Shown here: in pieces, positions 10,145 to 34,263 of the stretch
How the letters are laid out: each line of letters begins with the position of its first letter
Numbering within the stretch: position 1 is the first letter of the stretch
Virus record (IMG/VR): IMGVR_UViG_3300047170_000110
Strand: one strand, 5' to 3'
Source of the DNA: an uncultured virus (IMG/VR IMGVR_UViG_3300047170_000110)
Lineage: Duplodnaviria > Heunggongvirae > Uroviricota > Caudoviricetes
DNA length: 45,963 nt
Notes under the pieces: model-generated
Seen by the model: the letters and a program-made list of their open reading frames with translations, nothing else
What the model was told of the DNA's origin: nothing
Database searches by the model: none
Position numbers and translations under genes: made by a program

Positions 10145-10624
10145 CTAATCCCTACTCTCGGGCTCGGGCTGACGCAGCTCAGGCAGGATCTTTTTGGTCA
10201 GGAAGTCCTTGAACTCCTGAGGGCTGACCTTGCTCAAGTCCACGACCATCTCGTTTTTCTGGCGCTTGTAGTCGCTAGGTAGCATCATCCCGTCGCTACC
10301 CACGAGCTTGATGAGGCTTTCCCGCAGCTCGGGACGGATCCCGAAGGAGAGGGGCACGAGAACCTTGTCGCTGTTCTTGTAATCGGGAGGCGAGCCGCCC
10401 TTGGCCGCCCACGAACGGATCTCGCCCGCGCGGAAGCTCGTCCCGAGCAACCTTCCGAGCTGGGACATCTGTTCGTTTTCCACTTCTTTGAGCCAGAAAT
10501 AGGCAAACGCCCGTTCCTCGGGGCTCATCAAAGCGATTTCGTCGAAGCTGCGTTTCCCGGCGGCCCAAATGTAACCGACCACGGAGAGTTCCGGATCGTC
10601 TCGGGTCGCCTTTACTGCAAAGGG
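10145..10624 (-). CDS. tail assembly chaperone GT extension (-1 frameshift product)
   Basis: Frame is open back to slippery C-CCT-TTG at 10624-10618 in the end of the upstream gene; no clear RBS for GTG 10582. Confidence 0.7.
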   Translation of the reverse strand, partial: PFAVKATRDDPELSVVGYIWAAGKRSFDEIALMSPEERAFAYFWLKEVENEQMSQLGRLLGTSFRAGEIRSWAAKGGSPPDYKNSDKVLVPLSFGIRPELRESLIKLVGSDGMMLPSDYKRQKNEMVVDLSKVSPQEFKDFLTKKILPELRQPEPESRD

Positions 10625-24499: not shown

Positions 24500-24533
24500 A
24501 AAACGGGGGAGGCACTGCTTCCCCCGTTTTTTT
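24500..24533. terminator. bidirectional terminator
   Basis: AAAACGGGGGAGGC..GCTTCCCCCGTTTTTTT between convergent genes. Confidence 0.85.
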
Positions 24534-25030
24534 TATTTTAAGTAGGACCAGCTTCGGCCGCGTTTGATGTCCGAGATGAGATAACGGTTCACTCCAAATC
24601 GTTTCGCAATCGCCACGGTTGTGTAACCTGCCGCCAAAAGTTCCCGGATGTCCCGCACCTGCTCTTCAGTCACGATCGCCTTCGGATGATTTTCCCCCTG
24701 TGGGGAGGTCCCATGCCGTCTGCGATCCAGCTGGTTCTCGCTGGCCGTCCCCCAGATCACGTTCTCCAATCGGCAGTCCTCATTCCGGCCGTTCAAATGC
24801 CGGACCTCGTATTCCGATGAAGGGCGTGGCCCTCGGAAGGTCGTGCAGACGAGGATATGGACCAGCTGGGTGGGATACTTCCCGTCCCGGGCCAGCCGGA
24901 CAACGAGGTAGCCGTTATCCGATCTGCCGGGCTTGAGCTTCTTCTCGCGGCCATTGGCGAACCCCACGCTCCAAATAGAGCCATCCTCGTCCGCCTCGTA
25001 GCCTGGAAACCCCGGGATTGCCTTGCGCAT
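24533..25030 (-). CDS. NUMOD4-HNH homing endonuclease with C-terminal HTH
   Basis: IPGFPGYEA...G.IWS; LVHILVC..F.GPRP; VRHLNG...DCRLENVIWGT.SEN. Confidence 0.9.
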   Translation of the reverse strand: MRKAIPGFPGYEADEDGSIWSVGFANGREKKLKPGRSDNGYLVVRLARDGKYPTQLVHILVCTTFRGPRPSSEYEVRHLNGRNEDCRLENVIWGTASENQLDRRRHGTSPQGENHPKAIVTEEQVRDIRELLAAGYTTVAIAKRFGVNRYLISDIKRGRSWSYLK

Positions 25031-25538: not shown

Positions 25539-25766
25539 ATGGATCTGAAGACCAAGTATCCAGCGCTCGCAGCCGTCGTACCGAAAGGTGCGGGCCCTTG
25601 CTGCATGTGTCATCAGCGTATGTCCGATCAGGACGGCTTTCAGCTGTGTCCGGACTGCCAGGAGAGCATCAACAACTCTACCGGCCTGGGGCTTGACTAC
25701 GCGTCGGTCGCGAGTGTAATCGAAGATTCGAAGTACCCCACCGTGGCCGAAATCTCCGGCCACTAG
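25539..25766 (+). CDS. small Zn-finger late protein (MDLKTKYPAL...)
   Basis: CCMC..CPDC; GGTTATTTT motif 12 nt before ATG. Confidence 0.6.
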   Translation: MDLKTKYPALAAVVPKGAGPCCMCHQRMSDQDGFQLCPDCQESINNSTGLGLDYASVASVIEDSKYPTVAEISGH

Positions 25767-25767
25767 G

Positions 25768-25795
25768 TTGACCTCCTCCCAACCCTCCACATAAT
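25768..25795 (+). promoter_or_regulatory. sigma70-like promoter of the amber operon
   Basis: TTGACC-N16-CATAAT. Confidence 0.6.
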
Positions 25796-25886: not shown

Positions 25887-25945
25887 AGCTCTCCAAGATC
25901 CAGCGTTCGCCCGTTTAACCCGAACCCTAATTTTTGGAGACTTTA
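25884..25945 (+). promoter_or_regulatory. RBS-sequestering helix (putative translational attenuator)
   Basis: TAAAG-c-TCTCCAAGA (25884-25898) pairs with TTTTGGAGACTTTA (25932-25945), covering GGAG and the A of ATG; inner GTTCG/CGAAC hairpin. Confidence 0.65.
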
Positions 25946-26301
25946 TGAAATCCGTCGTCCTTTCTGAAATGAAGACCGAACTGAAATCCATGGCCGCGCA
26001 GATCCGGACCAACCGGCCGCTCGCGCGGGCCGCCGAATCCAACCAAGCCCGCAACCTCCCCTTCGAATACCCCACCCCCAATCCGTACGCTTTGTCCGAG
26101 CAATTCCGTTTCCTTCACATCGTCTACTGCCTGATGCGTGGGAGGACGATGGAGCAGATCGAACAGAAGCGCCGGTACACGCCCTACGCATTCCAGGCGC
26201 GCATCGATCGCCTTCGGGGGATCTACCAGCCCCGTCTGGATGCCGAACGCGCTCAGGCTGCCCAGGAAGCCGCTCCGGAGGCCGTGCATGACGTAGGGTG
26301 A
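25945..26301 (+). CDS. small helical phage protein (gene A of amber operon)
   Basis: 118 aa; FRFLHIVYCLMRGRTMEQIE motif; GGAG RBS. Confidence 0.8.
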   Translation: MKSVVLSEMKTELKSMAAQIRTNRPLARAAESNQARNLPFEYPTPNPYALSEQFRFLHIVYCLMRGRTMEQIEQKRRYTPYAFQARIDRLRGIYQPRLDAERAQAAQEAAPEAVHDVG

Positions 26302-26575
26302 GAAGCTCTACGTCTTGGTAGAAGCGAGCCTCTCGTCTTCCCAGCGAGCCGTGCAGGCCGCGCATGGGGTTGCCCAGTATTGCCTGGACCACCCCGATAC
26401 GCCCTGGCGGAACGGAACGATCGTCCTGCTGGTGGTCGAAGGGCTCGAAGCCTACATCCAAGGGCACGACCTAGGGCGTCATTCGGTGTTCCGAGAACCG
26501 GACGCTGGGGATCTGCTGACGGCCGTAGTGGGCTTGGATTTTAAAAGAATTACGAAGAGGTTGCCTATGTTGTAA
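26288..26575 (+). CDS. Pth2-like peptidyl-tRNA hydrolase with in-frame TAG at codon 3
   Basis: GGAGG-6nt-ATG ACG TAG GGT GAG AAG CTC TAC GTC TTG; KLYVLV...L..SQ.AVQAAH, W.NGTIVLL and FREPD....LTAV resemble the Pth2 fold. Confidence 0.75.
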
Positions 26576-26654
26576 ACCGGCAAAAGATCGGCCCTCTCCA
26601 GTAGGTTAGAACCTAGCTTACTTATTGGAGAGGATCGGTAAAAGCACATCAAAT

Positions 26655-26731
26655 GGACCCGTAGCTCAGTTGGGTAGAGCGGCCGATTCTAAATCGGCAG
26701 GTCGTGGGTTCGAACCCCACCGGGTCCTCCA
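26655..26731 (+). tRNA. amber suppressor tRNA, anticodon CUA
   Basis: Cloverleaf: GGACCCG/CGGGTCC-T-CCA; D stem GCTC/GAGC; GCCGA-TT[CTA]AA-TCGGC (anticodon 26689-26691); GTGGG-TTCGAAC-CCCAC. Confidence 0.95.
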
Positions 26732-26843: not shown

Positions 26844-27689
26844 CTAGGGGGAGAGAGCGCCCTCATTTTTTTCTGTAGGACCAGGAAGTAGTTTTGTTCC
26901 CGACTTGATCGCCAGCAACACGCGCTCTTTGTCTTTAAAGAAAGAATCGATCCGATCCGCGAGCGCGCAGATCCCGATCATCACCTCGTAAAAGAATTTC
27001 GCCGCCTCTTCGGTGTAGGGCATCTCTTTGAGTCCCTCGGGCAACTCGTAGCCGTCCTCCCGGGACCCTTCGTCAAAGAACCAAATGCCGGTAAAGCCAT
27101 TCAGCTTGGCTCTCCAGGAAACATCCGATCCGTGATGGTTCTCCAGGCCGTCTTCCGGGGTGTACCGGATCTTGGTGCCGGAAGATCGGGTGAAGGTTTG
27201 CTTGGTAATGACTCGGGCCATGAAGCCGACCTGAAAGAAGTCGGACTGCTTCATGTGTCCGTCCAGGTTTCCGAACCAATCCCCCTGGCCTTTACCATAC
27301 ACGGGTGCGTATCCCCCGTTGGGGTAAATCGTGCCGTCCTTCCCCTTGTAGAACGAGACTCGGTTGTCCGTGCCGTATACGAGGATCAGCTCTTCCGTAA
27401 CCGTGCAGGCAACGTGATCTTCGGCTGCCTTCTGGCTAAAGTCCTCCAGAAGCCGGAGTGTCTTGGCCGCGAGACGGGTCTTCCCCCGGTGGTAGTCGAT
27501 CCCTACGTCTTCCCACTCAGGTTTGGCGGAGTTCCGATCCACTCGTTTGAGTCGCTCCGCCGATTCCAGAAGTTCCTCGGGCACGGTTGTCCGGAAAATT
27601 CCGGTCGAATCCACCGTCACGTCCAGGTCCTTAGAGAACTTTTGGACAGGGGATTTGGCGATCACTCGGATCGTGCTAATTTTAGCCAT
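26844..27689 (-). CDS. hypothetical protein (MAKISTIRV...), paralog of 28499-29134
   Basis: GAAGGA RBS before ATG 27689; C-terminal EMPYTEEAAKFF motif. Confidence 0.7.
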   Translation of the reverse strand: MAKISTIRVIAKSPVQKFSKDLDVTVDSTGIFRTTVPEELLESAERLKRVDRNSAKPEWEDVGIDYHRGKTRLAAKTLRLLEDFSQKAAEDHVACTVTEELILVYGTDNRVSFYKGKDGTIYPNGGYAPVYGKGQGDWFGNLDGHMKQSDFFQVGFMARVITKQTFTRSSGTKIRYTPEDGLENHHGSDVSWRAKLNGFTGIWFFDEGSREDGYELPEGLKEMPYTEEAAKFFYEVMIGICALADRIDSFFKDKERVLLAIKSGTKLLPGPTEKNEGALSP

Positions 27690-27942
27690 CGGTAGGGGTT
27701 CCTTCTTTTTTAGAATTCCTAAATGTAATTCCGTTCTCTTTCGCAAAGGCAAGTGCGCGTTGGTGGGCTTCTTCCTGTGTGGCATAATAACCCAAGGAAA
27801 TATTACCCTTGTAACGGACCTTGCTCTGCCAGGGGAGACGCCTGCCATCTTTAAAGGATGTGCCCCATGTTTTTGTGTAAGTCCTAACAAAGCTATCCCC
27901 CCGAGGGGCATGGGATAGGGCTCTTTCTAACGTCCAACCCAA
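27682..27942 (-). pseudogene. AP2-domain remnant of an HNH-AP2 homing endonuclease
   Basis: LGWTLERAL followed by 'WQSKVRYKG.ISLGYYATQEEAH' AP2-like motif; no nuclease domain, poor start, AT-rich. Confidence 0.5.
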
Positions 27943-28329: not shown

Positions 28330-28512
28330 TTATTTTCCCTTTTGCGCCGGTTTCTTTGGGACCGCTCGTTTTAGGATCGCTACTATTTCTTTGTAGGTGG
28401 GAGACGAGGTTCTCACGTCCAGCTTGCCCCATTGCTCGCCGTGAGCTTTGATGGCGAAAAGAAAGGCAATTGCTTCGCGTGCCGACCTTTGACTGATCCT
28501 AACTTGTGCCAT
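28330..28512 (-). CDS. small hypothetical protein (MAQVRIS...)
   Basis: GGAGG RBS before ATG 28512; fills operon gap. Confidence 0.5.
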   Translation of the reverse strand: MAQVRISQRSAREAIAFLFAIKAHGEQWGKLDVRTSSPTYKEIVAILKRAVPKKPAQKGK

Positions 28513-29134
28513 TAGTCTTTTCCTCCGGGGTTCTGAGATCGGGGAGCGCATGCTTGCCGTCGATCGCGGCCAACAGGGCGGTTTTCTTTTGTTTGTCGAA
28601 GAACAGGTGCAGCTTCATAATCATCGCGTTCAGGCTGGCTTCCATGGTGGCGAAGAACGCTTCTCGCTCGGGGGTCCAGGGCATCTCCTGGTAGTCGTTA
28701 TCCACGTACTGGTCTTGGCCCTTTTCGGTACGCCAGATCGTTTCCCCCCGGTGGGAGTGCTTTATCATTACCTCGTATTTGAGCGAGATTCCAGTTCCGT
28801 CCCGGGAGGTTTTCCCGAGGTAGAGGGACTTCTTTCGACCCGTTTTGGTGTCTTTGTACTCGAAGCCGCAATCCAAGGTCACCTTGTAGAGGATGACCTT
28901 CTCTTTTTTGTCATCCAAGACGAGCTTCTGATACGTCTGGACCTTTTCGCGGACGTAGTCTTTCAGCTTCTCGAAATTAGAGTCCGAGTAGCAGTGCGTG
29001 GTCTCATCACCCAGGATCTCTTTGCAGACATCCTCCGGGAGCGTCAAGGTGAACTGGTTACTAGAGGGGTGGAAAAAGATCGGGACCGTTACGGGCTTGT
29101 CGAATACGCGGAAAGTGAAGTTCTCAATTTTCAT
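28499..29134 (-). CDS. hypothetical protein (MKIENFTF...), paralog of 26844-27689
   Basis: GAAGGA RBS; EMPWTPEREAFF motif. Confidence 0.7.
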   Translation of the reverse strand: MKIENFTFRVFDKPVTVPIFFHPSSNQFTLTLPEDVCKEILGDETTHCYSDSNFEKLKDYVREKVQTYQKLVLDDKKEKVILYKVTLDCGFEYKDTKTGRKKSLYLGKTSRDGTGISLKYEVMIKHSHRGETIWRTEKGQDQYVDNDYQEMPWTPEREAFFATMEASLNAMIMKLHLFFDKQKKTALLAAIDGKHALPDLRTPEEKTNGTS

Positions 29135-29309
29135 GAATTTCCTTCTCCGCTTCAGTGGCTGTCGGGAGTTCGGTCTCGCTGACCTTGATTTTGATGACCG
29201 CATGGGGATTCAACTCCTGGAGCTGACCCCGTTCGATGTCCGCTTCCCGGGCCGTATCAAAGGGGATCGGATGCCTGTCTCCATCCACGCTCAGGTAGTA
29301 TTTGGCCAT
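29124..29309 (-). CDS. small hypothetical protein
   Basis: 61 aa, overlaps both neighbours in operon. Confidence 0.5.
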   Translation of the reverse strand: MAKYYLSVDGDRHPIPFDTAREADIERGQLQELNPHAVIKIKVSETELPTATEAEKEIHEN

Positions 29310-33490: not shown

Positions 33491-33688
33491 TTACGGCTTT
33501 TGACGCTTCAGGTATTCAACCACGTGGACCCCGTGGCCGGAGAAGATCATCTGGAGCGGGATTTGGTCATGAAAGTGGGGATTGGGCGTATTGAACCACT
33601 GGTTCAACGCGAAGGGGGTTTTAAGTCCCAGCCGCGAGGCGGAGGCCAAGTCCCGAGCTTCCTGAATCTGGGTTTCCAAACTGCTCAT
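33491..33688 (-). CDS. Xre/MbcA/ParS antitoxin C-terminal-like domain protein
   Basis: QWFNTPNPHF..QIPLQMI..G....V..YL fits the W..PN..L....Pl pattern. Confidence 0.6.
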   Translation of the reverse strand: MSSLETQIQEARDLASASRLGLKTPFALNQWFNTPNPHFHDQIPLQMIFSGHGVHVVEYLKRQKP

Positions 33689-34205
33689 ACCCTTGAAGAT
33701 AAACCCGCCAGCGCTCCCGCTTCAACAACACGTCGCGTCCGTACTCCCGGACGGAAGCCATCCGGCAGGTCGCGGGGCGTTTCTGCTTCACATAAAATCC
33801 CGCCTGGTAGCAGCAGGAGAGATCCGCGAGCGAGGAGCCCACTTCGGCATAGCAGCGTTGAATGTAGGCGAGTCCGAGCTGGATGTTGGTCTCCGGATCG
33901 TACATCTGGAAAGCGGACCCGACATACTCCAGCTCCTGGCGGGCGGTGGTGAGGAGAATCTGGAAGAGACCTAAAGACGCGGTCTTGAGTTTCTTCTCCC
34001 AGCGGCGAGCCTTGGGGTTGAATGAAGACTCCTTTTCGGCGACTGCCAGAGCGGTAGCGGGGTCGAGCTGCCGTTCACGGGCGGCGACGATGATCCGGGT
34101 GATGATCTGTTCCCGAGAGAGGATTTCCGCGTCCTGAGCGAGCGCGGCCAAAGGCATACACACGACCGCGAGCGCGATCCCAAAAGCCAGGGTGATCGAT
34201 TTCAT
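33621..34205 (-). CDS. exported lytic transglycosylase (SLT domain)
   Basis: Signal peptide; AVAEKESSFNPKA, GLFQI, DPETNIQLG..YI, YQAG motifs. Confidence 0.9.
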   Translation of the reverse strand: MKSITLAFGIALAVVCMPLAALAQDAEILSREQIITRIIVAARERQLDPATALAVAEKESSFNPKARRWEKKLKTASLGLFQILLTTARQELEYVGSAFQMYDPETNIQLGLAYIQRCYAEVGSSLADLSCCYQAGFYVKQKRPATCRMASVREYGRDVLLKRERWRVYLQGYEQFGNPDSGSSGLGLRLAAGT

Positions 34206-34263
34206 AGAATCCTCAGCCCTAGCACAGCGAGCAGCCAAGGGCCAAGACTAGATGCGTTATAAG

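Follow-up and report, generated by a model that had tools for sequence, protein, structure and literature searches.

A divergent Pth2-fold gene in an uncultured caudovirus has an early in-frame amber codon and may be gated by a neighbouring suppressor tRNA

The window that we analysed, a 45,963-nucleotide stretch of DNA from an uncultured virus of the class Caudoviricetes (IMG/VR record IMGVR_UViG_3300047170_000110), contains a gene for a small protein predicted to have the fold of peptidyl-tRNA hydrolase 2 (Pth2). The reading frame of this gene is interrupted at its third codon by an in-frame TAG, and a gene for an amber-suppressor tRNA, designated tRNA(CUA) after its anticodon, starts 80 nt 3' of it on the same strand. 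We consider it likely that expression of the Pth2-fold enzyme is gated by suppression of this early stop, and that the enzyme acts together with the product of the adjoining upstream gene, here called protein X, in the service of the suppressor tRNA. The case is a comparative one, drawn from the sequences of the window and of its relatives among phage and metagenome contigs, and from a structure model.

At the 5' end of the gene, a Shine-Dalgarno GGAGG is separated by a six-nucleotide spacer (CCGTGC) from an ATG (26288-26290), which is followed by ACG (26291-26293) and then by the TAG (Table 1). Beyond the TAG the frame continues through GGT GAG AAG CTC TAC GTC (GEKLYV) and a TTG, and stays open to a TAA at 26573-26575, which gives a product of 95 residues when the TAG is decoded as sense. 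This layout, with a single TAG interrupting the frame, had been described in an earlier note on the sequence and was borne out base for base. The window has no ATG, GTG or TTG between the TAG and the TTG at 26315, and it is from this TTG that a listing of open reading frames (ORFs) begins the hydrolase gene (26315..26575). Contigs of the sequencing runs X1 and X4/X5 show no differences from the window across 26227-26450, TAG included, so the TAG is unlikely to be a slip of one assembly; X4 and X5 resemble one data set filed twice, X1 is a possible source, and the contigs of X3 miss the TAG. The bare pattern of an ATG, up to nine codons, a stop and at least 70 open codons is not rare in the window, which has a G+C content of 58% (5 cases with TAG, 9 with TAA and 7 with TGA in a six-frame scan), and the case therefore rests on homology. 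The other four TAG cases lie antisense or out of frame to higher-scoring ORFs, as judged from their coordinates against a crude gene set; at the present locus, the six codons after the TAG correspond to the conserved first strand of the hydrolase family, and the layout recurs in relatives.

Table 1. Features in and around the gated hydrolase gene (window coordinates).
Feature	Position	Strand	Basis or remark
Sigma-70-like promoter candidate (TTGACC, 16 nt, CATAAT)	25768..25795	+	10/12 consensus matches only
Protein X, 118 aa, all-helical	25945..26301	+	ORF; TGA stop (26299-26301) overlaps the hydrolase leader
Shine-Dalgarno GGAGG	26277..26281	+	6 nt 5' of ATG 26288
Leader ATG ACG (Met-Thr)	26288..26293	+	sequence
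Putative gating amber codon TAG, next base G	26294..26296	+	sequence; contigs of X1, X4/X5
Body of the predicted Pth2-fold protein, 92 aa + TAA; first strand (beta1, LYVLVE) at 26306-26323	26297..26575	+	profile, AlphaFold2, Foldseek
TTG, sole canonical start 3' of the TAG, inside beta1 (rival start)	26315..26317	+	ORF list, AlphaFold2
Hairpin between hydrolase stop and tRNA, no T-run after	26587..26638	+	-29.1 kcal/mol, z -3.25, 0/200 shuffles as stable
Amber-suppressor tRNA, anticodon CUA, loop UU-CUA-AA, encoded CCA, discriminator U	26655..26731	+	ARAGORN; Rfam tRNA 71.6 bits
Terminator-like stem + T-run, 3' of tRNA	26847..26874	+	consensus only; weak (2 found vs 2.1 expected in shuffles)

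The window protein has no Pfam match at E<=1 and only weak PHROG matches, while an exhaustive HMMER search recovered 339 clusters of relatives (50% identity) at E<=0.001. From the 150 relatives listed, an alignment of 85 members was built out of the window protein, its closest relative P0002 and 83 others of similar length. The profile of this alignment matched the Pth2 of M. jannaschii (PDB 2zv3) over almost its full length at E 1.2e-5, and the next three matches were also Pth2 or Bit1 chains. Searched individually, 54 of the 85 proteins match PF01981 with E<=1 (the best at 6.8e-8), and 13 match the NCBIfam Pth2 model PRK04322. An AlphaFold2 model made with the alignment has a pLDDT of 97.2, with the first strand, beta1, at residues 4-9 of the 92-residue body (block pLDDT >=95), and in a Foldseek search with it, the first 12 ranks were occupied entirely by chains of the Pth2 or Bit1 type (prob 1.00, TMq 0.58-0.76). 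The Pth2-like identity and fold anticipated by the earlier note thus held up in profile, model and structure search alike, and the window product is, on this modelling, best described as a divergent Pth2-fold protein, a remote relative rather than a scored member of PF01981. Two residues, Q20 and H23, are invariant in the alignment. P0002, which is 82% identical to the window protein over 100% of its length, begins MSSKLYVLV, and in most of the 150 relatives listed the alignment sets in at residue 2-3; the family shows no conservation between the start and beta1. The TTG at 26315 is residue 7 of the body, and a start there would truncate the first strand, as the same note had foreseen.

Relatives were gathered by two kinds of scan. 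A protein-seeded scan of IMG/VR gave 10 loci, and a scan with a back-translated motif pattern gave 120, of which 95 belong to the family by hmmsearch and the remaining 25, matched by the same DNA pattern, served as controls. Together with the window, the family loci form 83 clusters at 90% identity, 78 of them classifiable. In metagenomes the pattern matched roughly 1,700 stretches, from which 120 were sampled (29 family, 91 non-family controls); the protein-seeded scan found no relative in the metagenomes and two short weak matches in genome contigs.

Among the 78 classifiable clusters, 45 have an ordinary start 1-7 codons 5' of beta1. In 32, as in the window, a start is followed by 0-7 codons, an in-frame TAG, 1-7 further codons and then beta1, with no other canonical start, and in one the same layout is built with TGA; no cluster lacked both an ordinary start and an early-stop leader. 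The distance from start to stop is 1-8 codons in these relatives, which places the stop at codon 2-9, and in some the ATG is followed directly by TAG. By inspection of the sequences, without a count, several relatives have GGAG or AGGAG 5' of the leader ATG rather than after the stop. The leader is where the stops are concentrated: 32 TAGs fall in about 678 leader codons vs 7 in 7,330 body codons (odds ratio 52, nominal p 2e-28), and a further TAG in the body occurs in only 2 of the 32 early-TAG clusters. Taken together, these sequences suggest that the early-stop leader is the N-terminus of the hydrolase protein itself. Immediately 3' of the early stop, 17 of the 33 early-stop clusters have A, 15 have G, one has C and none has T, so that a purine follows in 32 of them; in E. 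coli, suppression of UAG is favoured by a purine in this position. On a quick tree of 103 alignment columns, the early-stop label changes at least 4 times, and 9 times by parsimony. On this tree the window sits in a clade of mostly normal-start members, and its putative gate arose independently of the main early-stop clades. Further cases come from the metagenome sample: four with an early TAG, one with TGA (L177, leader ATG ATC ATG TTG TGA) and one with TAA (L223, leader ATG CAA CCG TTT TCG TAA), the last two both before family members, in stretches with flanks too short to show tRNAs. Among larger genomes, the 462-kb uncultured phage LR756500 carries ATG AAG TAG with a tRNA(CUA) about 0.8 kb downstream, and ungated forms of the hydrolase occur in Lak phages and in the Stenotrophomonas phages RAS14 and CM1.

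The second line of evidence is the association of the family with suppressor tRNAs. All 10 IMG/VR loci found by protein have one (8 CUA, 2 UUA), as do, within 3 kb, 36 of the 48 clusters flanked on each side by 2 kb or more (32 CUA, 3 UUA, 1 UCA; hereafter full-flank clusters), and suppressors make up 51 of the 108 tRNAs in family loci. Every one of these 51 lies on the strand of the hydrolase gene, and in 33 of 43 clusters the nearest one lies within 700 nt downstream. No suppressor tRNA was found in either set of control loci (0/25 in 111.5 kb; 0/91 in 294.6 kb). Moreover, the type of the early stop agrees with that of the nearby suppressor in all 16 informative clusters. One of these is L050, a 342.6-kb IMG/VR contig in which an early TGA (at about 2950-2970, in gene orientation) is accompanied by two tRNA(UCA) genes (at 1667 and 1803), and which is nested in a well-supported clade whose other eight rows have early TAGs with CUA tRNAs. 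The need for amber suppression to make the full 95 residues, as the earlier note proposed, is thus supported by comparison, through the adjoining tRNA(CUA), the early-stop clusters and the agreement between stop and suppressor. At three loci with UUA suppressors (L033, L048 and L063), these tRNAs are of class II, with a long variable arm and a length of 91-92 nt, and the hydrolase genes there start at an ordinary ATG.

The suppressor tRNA of the window is 85% identical to its nearest annotated relative, the tRNA-Lys(ctt) of Ruegeria phage RpAliso, with which it shares the T-arm, the variable loop and the U-CCA end; it looks like a phage tRNA of the Lys(CUU) type with its anticodon altered to CUA. 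An exact 32-nt stretch of it had no matches in viral contigs. Sinorhizobium phage Phosso, which has a similar tRNA(CUA), was considered as a family member and set aside, as its adjoining ORFs are not of the family.

How the rest of the window uses TAG bears on whether the early stop is special. The window encodes a major head protein, a virion protein, a collagen-like tail fibre, a tape measure and an endolysin-like gene, and its head protein shares 31-36% identity with the head proteins of jumbo phages of 200-310 kb; it is probably a fragment of a jumbo-phage genome of more than 200 kb. When read in the standard code (code 11), all five of these phage genes are intact. Seven of 45 crude genes end in TAG (e.g. 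28499-29203, 26844-27911 and 10145-10582, all on the minus strand), and reading through these seven terminators would add 0-88 codons. The base after them is T in three, C in three and G in one, a pyrimidine in 6 of 7, and after the proposed gating TAG it is G. No TAG-split ORF with coding signal on both sides was found in the 46-kb window, and the hydrolase gene is the sole gene that needs TAG read-through within these 46 kb. As a possible second gated gene we considered the endolysin-like gene at 33621-34238, which has a TAG three codons 5' of its TTG start, and rejected it because it has no ATG leader. The 46 kb have neither the many in-frame TAGs nor the lack of TAG terminators of a TAG-recoded (code 15) genome, although a phage tRNA(CUA) is present. 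A comparison of six-frame ORF density under codes 11 and 15 on 6-kb loci was uninformative, as dropping any stop raises the density about equally.

The gene directly upstream encodes protein X, which carries the motif FRxxHIxYCLxRGRTxEQIE (FRHxHIAYCLxRGRTxEQIE) and is helical in its AlphaFold2 model (pLDDT 90.6). A phmmer search found relatives of X in 24 other loci, directly upstream of the hydrolase gene in 17, downstream in 1 and fused to it in a single frame in 6 (L025, L043, L045, L062, L082 and L111). Judged by this recurrent neighbourhood, X is a conserved and previously uncharacterised candidate partner of the hydrolase. Of the full-flank clusters, 22 of the 29 with a normal start carry X, vs 3 of the 19 with an early stop. 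X had no match in Pfam, among PDB sequences or in Foldseek; leads from the Atlas, to sigma-70 region 4 and to helix-turn-helix proteins, were weak (at most 0.84) and below the Atlas's own bar, and a predicted complex of X with the hydrolase scored 0.27 against a mark of 0.32.

We hypothesize that ribosomes would start at the AUG at 26288, behind GGAGG, read ACG and reach UAG as the third codon, where release factor 1 would compete with the phage suppressor tRNA. If release factor 1 wins, only Met-Thr would be made; if the phage tRNA(CUA) decodes the UAG, the full 95-residue protein would be made with beta1 intact, and the level of the enzyme would thereby report the efficiency of amber suppression in the infected cell. 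This supposes that the tRNA is charged and decodes this UAG, and that the gate has been selected rather than tolerated. The enzyme itself would be a hydrolase of the ester bond at the 3' end of a tRNA, with a peptidyl- or aminoacyl-tRNA as its presumed substrate, and would probably work with X in the service of the suppressor tRNA; its role is most likely that of a tRNA-ester hydrolase serving the suppressor through peptidyl-tRNA recycling or charge editing. A bolder version, which we put forward as speculative and on balance unlikely, is a homeostat in which the enzyme and X deacylate or recycle the very suppressor needed for the enzyme's own synthesis, so that UAG read-through would be held at a set level in a phage of standard code. 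If true, such a homeostat would be a tRNA-side counterpart of the autoregulation of release factor 2 (RF2), and would account for the retention of suppressor tRNAs by phages in which TAG still serves as a terminator.

Several findings weigh against suppression-gated expression of a tRNA-serving hydrolase. On the side of the enzyme, the family does not reach the curated Pfam threshold for membership. The GKGK loop of Pth2 pairs with s-k-s-q in the family (S-S-S-Q in the window), the loop lysine being replaced by Q or Y, and the DAGxT of Pth2 is replaced by a conserved EPD, with the Asp of DAG paired to a near-invariant E. Work by Fromant and colleagues in 2005 on the S. solfataricus enzyme is said to have given this Lys and Asp catalytic roles, and with both replaced, the chemistry of the family may differ from that of Pth2. 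On the side of the gate, 12 of the 48 full-flank clusters, and 4 of the 18 with an early TAG, have no suppressor within 3 kb; a switch of stop and anticodon together, with tRNA information, is seen at one locus only, L050; the clusters are phylogenetically related, which makes p-values computed over them nominal; and the results on the genetic code cover 46 kb of a genome that is probably larger than 200 kb, so that recoding may occur elsewhere in it. The start codon and the recent history of the window's own gene raise further points of this kind, which bear on particular alternatives.

The early TAG might be read through by the phage tRNA and yet be a recent neutral mutation in an unconstrained N-terminal tail, without any selected control. 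The window's own well-supported clade fits this, with 29 of its 31 rows having an ordinary start and 2 an early TAG, as does P0002, the closest relative, which has no TAG; from these two facts, the window's TAG could be a recent nonsense change, tolerable thanks to the suppressor, and the lack of conservation between start and beta1 points the same way. Against it, a stop occurs at the same position in 33 of 78 clusters on deep branches, a further TAG in the gene body is limited, among the 32 early-TAG clusters, to the two noted above, and the purine context and the joint switch to TGA and UCA look selected; we therefore regard mere tolerance as improbable. Less probable again is that translation starts at the TTG at 26315, giving a protein of 86 residues that lacks half of beta1, or that the gene is decaying, with ATG-ACG-TAG there by chance. 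TTG is a legal start codon, the bare ATG, TAG and ORF pattern occurs 5 times in the six frames of the window, and gene callers missed the long form, as in the database copy of the window's gene (P0003), a 68-aa call that begins with a Val within helix 1. Yet the strand that a TTG start would cut is conserved in the family and confidently modelled, all 45 normal-start clusters begin upstream of it, and the GGAGG serves the ATG at 26288 rather than the TTG. As for decay, the body is intact, as its full-length match to P0002 attests.

The form of a leader minigene is also present, a Shine-Dalgarno followed by Met-Thr-stop, and termination or peptidyl-tRNA drop-off there might control ribosome entry without any read-through. 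Such leaders are indeed very short, some of them ATG-TAG, and Pth enzymes act on dropped-off peptidyl-tRNA. However, in all 33 start-less genes among the 78 clusters the leader start is in frame and at most 8 codons from the stop, no re-initiation start precedes beta1, and the type of stop follows the anticodon of the suppressor, which a drop-off sensor does not require; nothing that we found favours drop-off of the kind known from lambda bar. The conserved continuation in frame favours read-through, and we hold an attenuator of this type to be very unlikely. The remaining possibility, which we find barely credible, is a +1 frameshift at GGG-TGA (26296-26301) that would fuse X to the hydrolase and so mimic the natural fusions. 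X is fused to the hydrolase in six clusters, and its stop comes 3 nt after the TAG, so that slippage by +1 at GGG_U would carry ribosomes from one frame into the other. However, 14 nt separate the GGAGG from the slip codon, vs roughly 3 nt between the Shine-Dalgarno and the slip codon in prfB, and no X gene was detected in the fetched DNA of 30 of the 33 early-stop clusters, which indicates that the leader design is independent of X; we saw no other evidence for slippage. Suppression of the early stop, with the gate maintained by selection, is thus the reading we prefer.

The suppressor tRNA, the hydrolase gene and the gene for X plausibly form one rightward transcription unit, as their order and the signals around them suggest (Table 1). 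The hairpin between the hydrolase stop and the tRNA may serve in processing of a co-transcript of mRNA and tRNA or in protection of the 3' end of the mRNA. Just upstream of the unit, in a gap between called genes, an alternative frame at 25539-25766 (+) encodes about 75 residues with a zinc-ribbon-like motif (CCxC...CxxC) and ends 2 nt 5' of the promoter-like site. An HNH homing-type endonuclease (HNH_3 + NUMOD4 + helix-turn-helix) is encoded at 24533-25030 (-), in the interval that separates the module from the major head gene. Among the relatives, a conserved ORF of about 200 residues follows the hydrolase gene at L014, L019, L023, L049, L050 and L070 (the YLY(A/T)ISRRD clade), with a 19-nt overlap in two loci and no Pfam match; in the related record of Stenotrophomonas phage RAS14 (L133), a valyl-tRNA synthetase gene lies about 1 kb further on.

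If the gating holds, the hydrolase gene would be a concrete and conserved target for the suppressor tRNAs of phages whose code is otherwise standard, and the purpose of such tRNAs would become testable with a single cassette of promoter, X, gated hydrolase and tRNA. The analysis also defines a widespread family of translation-related phage proteins that is linked to suppressor tRNAs and travels with an uncharacterised partner. Gene callers shorten early-stop genes, as with P0003, and the design is thus systematically invisible in annotations. A switch in which stop and anticodon are matched, and which would have evolved with TAG, TGA and TAA, may moreover be a useful part for genetic-code engineering.

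Compared with known systems, the family resembles Pth2 (PF01981; 2zv3, 3erj, 1xty and the Bit1 structure 1q7s) in its alpha/beta fold, in a DL...Q..HA signature near the N-terminus and in an acidic residue and T.A in the C-terminal half. It differs in being shorter (92-115 aa), in the replacement of the GKGK Lys by Q/Y and of DAGxT by EPD, in scoring below the Pfam threshold and in being encoded beside a suppressor tRNA. The minigenes of lambda bar, two-codon ORFs behind a Shine-Dalgarno and linked to Pth biology, are alike in both respects, whereas here a conserved, start-less protein continues in frame past the stop. PTH2 genes in jumbo phages were reported by Iyer et al. 2021 (PMC7824862), who proposed a role in ribosome rescue after tRNA cleavage. 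As in the present case, where the head protein is jumbo-phage-like, these are Pth2-type genes of large phages; the main text of that paper does not use the word 'suppressor' and mentions no early stop, tRNA linkage or partner X. Closer to the proposed gate is the 'code change module' of tRNA, aminoacyl-tRNA synthetase and release factor described for phages by Borges et al. 2021 (10.1101/2021.08.26.457843), encoded in the standard code, together with their proposal that in-frame stops delay late and lysis genes until the suppressor tRNA is made. Both systems involve a phage suppressor tRNA and an in-frame stop that would make a gene await it, but here a single stop at codon 2-9 would gate a gene of the tRNA's own unit, and TAG is otherwise a terminator in the 46 kb; the main text of Borges et al. 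has no occurrence of 'peptidyl'. In the literature available as full text, subscription-only papers and supplements excepted, we found no paper in which a Pth2-type gene is connected with either a suppressor tRNA or an early stop.

The nearest logical analogue, by analogy of design, would be prfB, the gene of RF2, which according to the account in PMC12421855 is autoregulated by a premature in-frame UGA. In both cases a gene related to termination or translation has an early in-frame stop, TAG at codon 3 in the window, and its output would sense how that stop is read. As that account describes it, prfB bypasses its stop by a +1 frameshift and senses its own product, whereas in the window the body is in frame with the start, the stop would be read in frame, and what is sensed, on our proposal, would be the tRNA.

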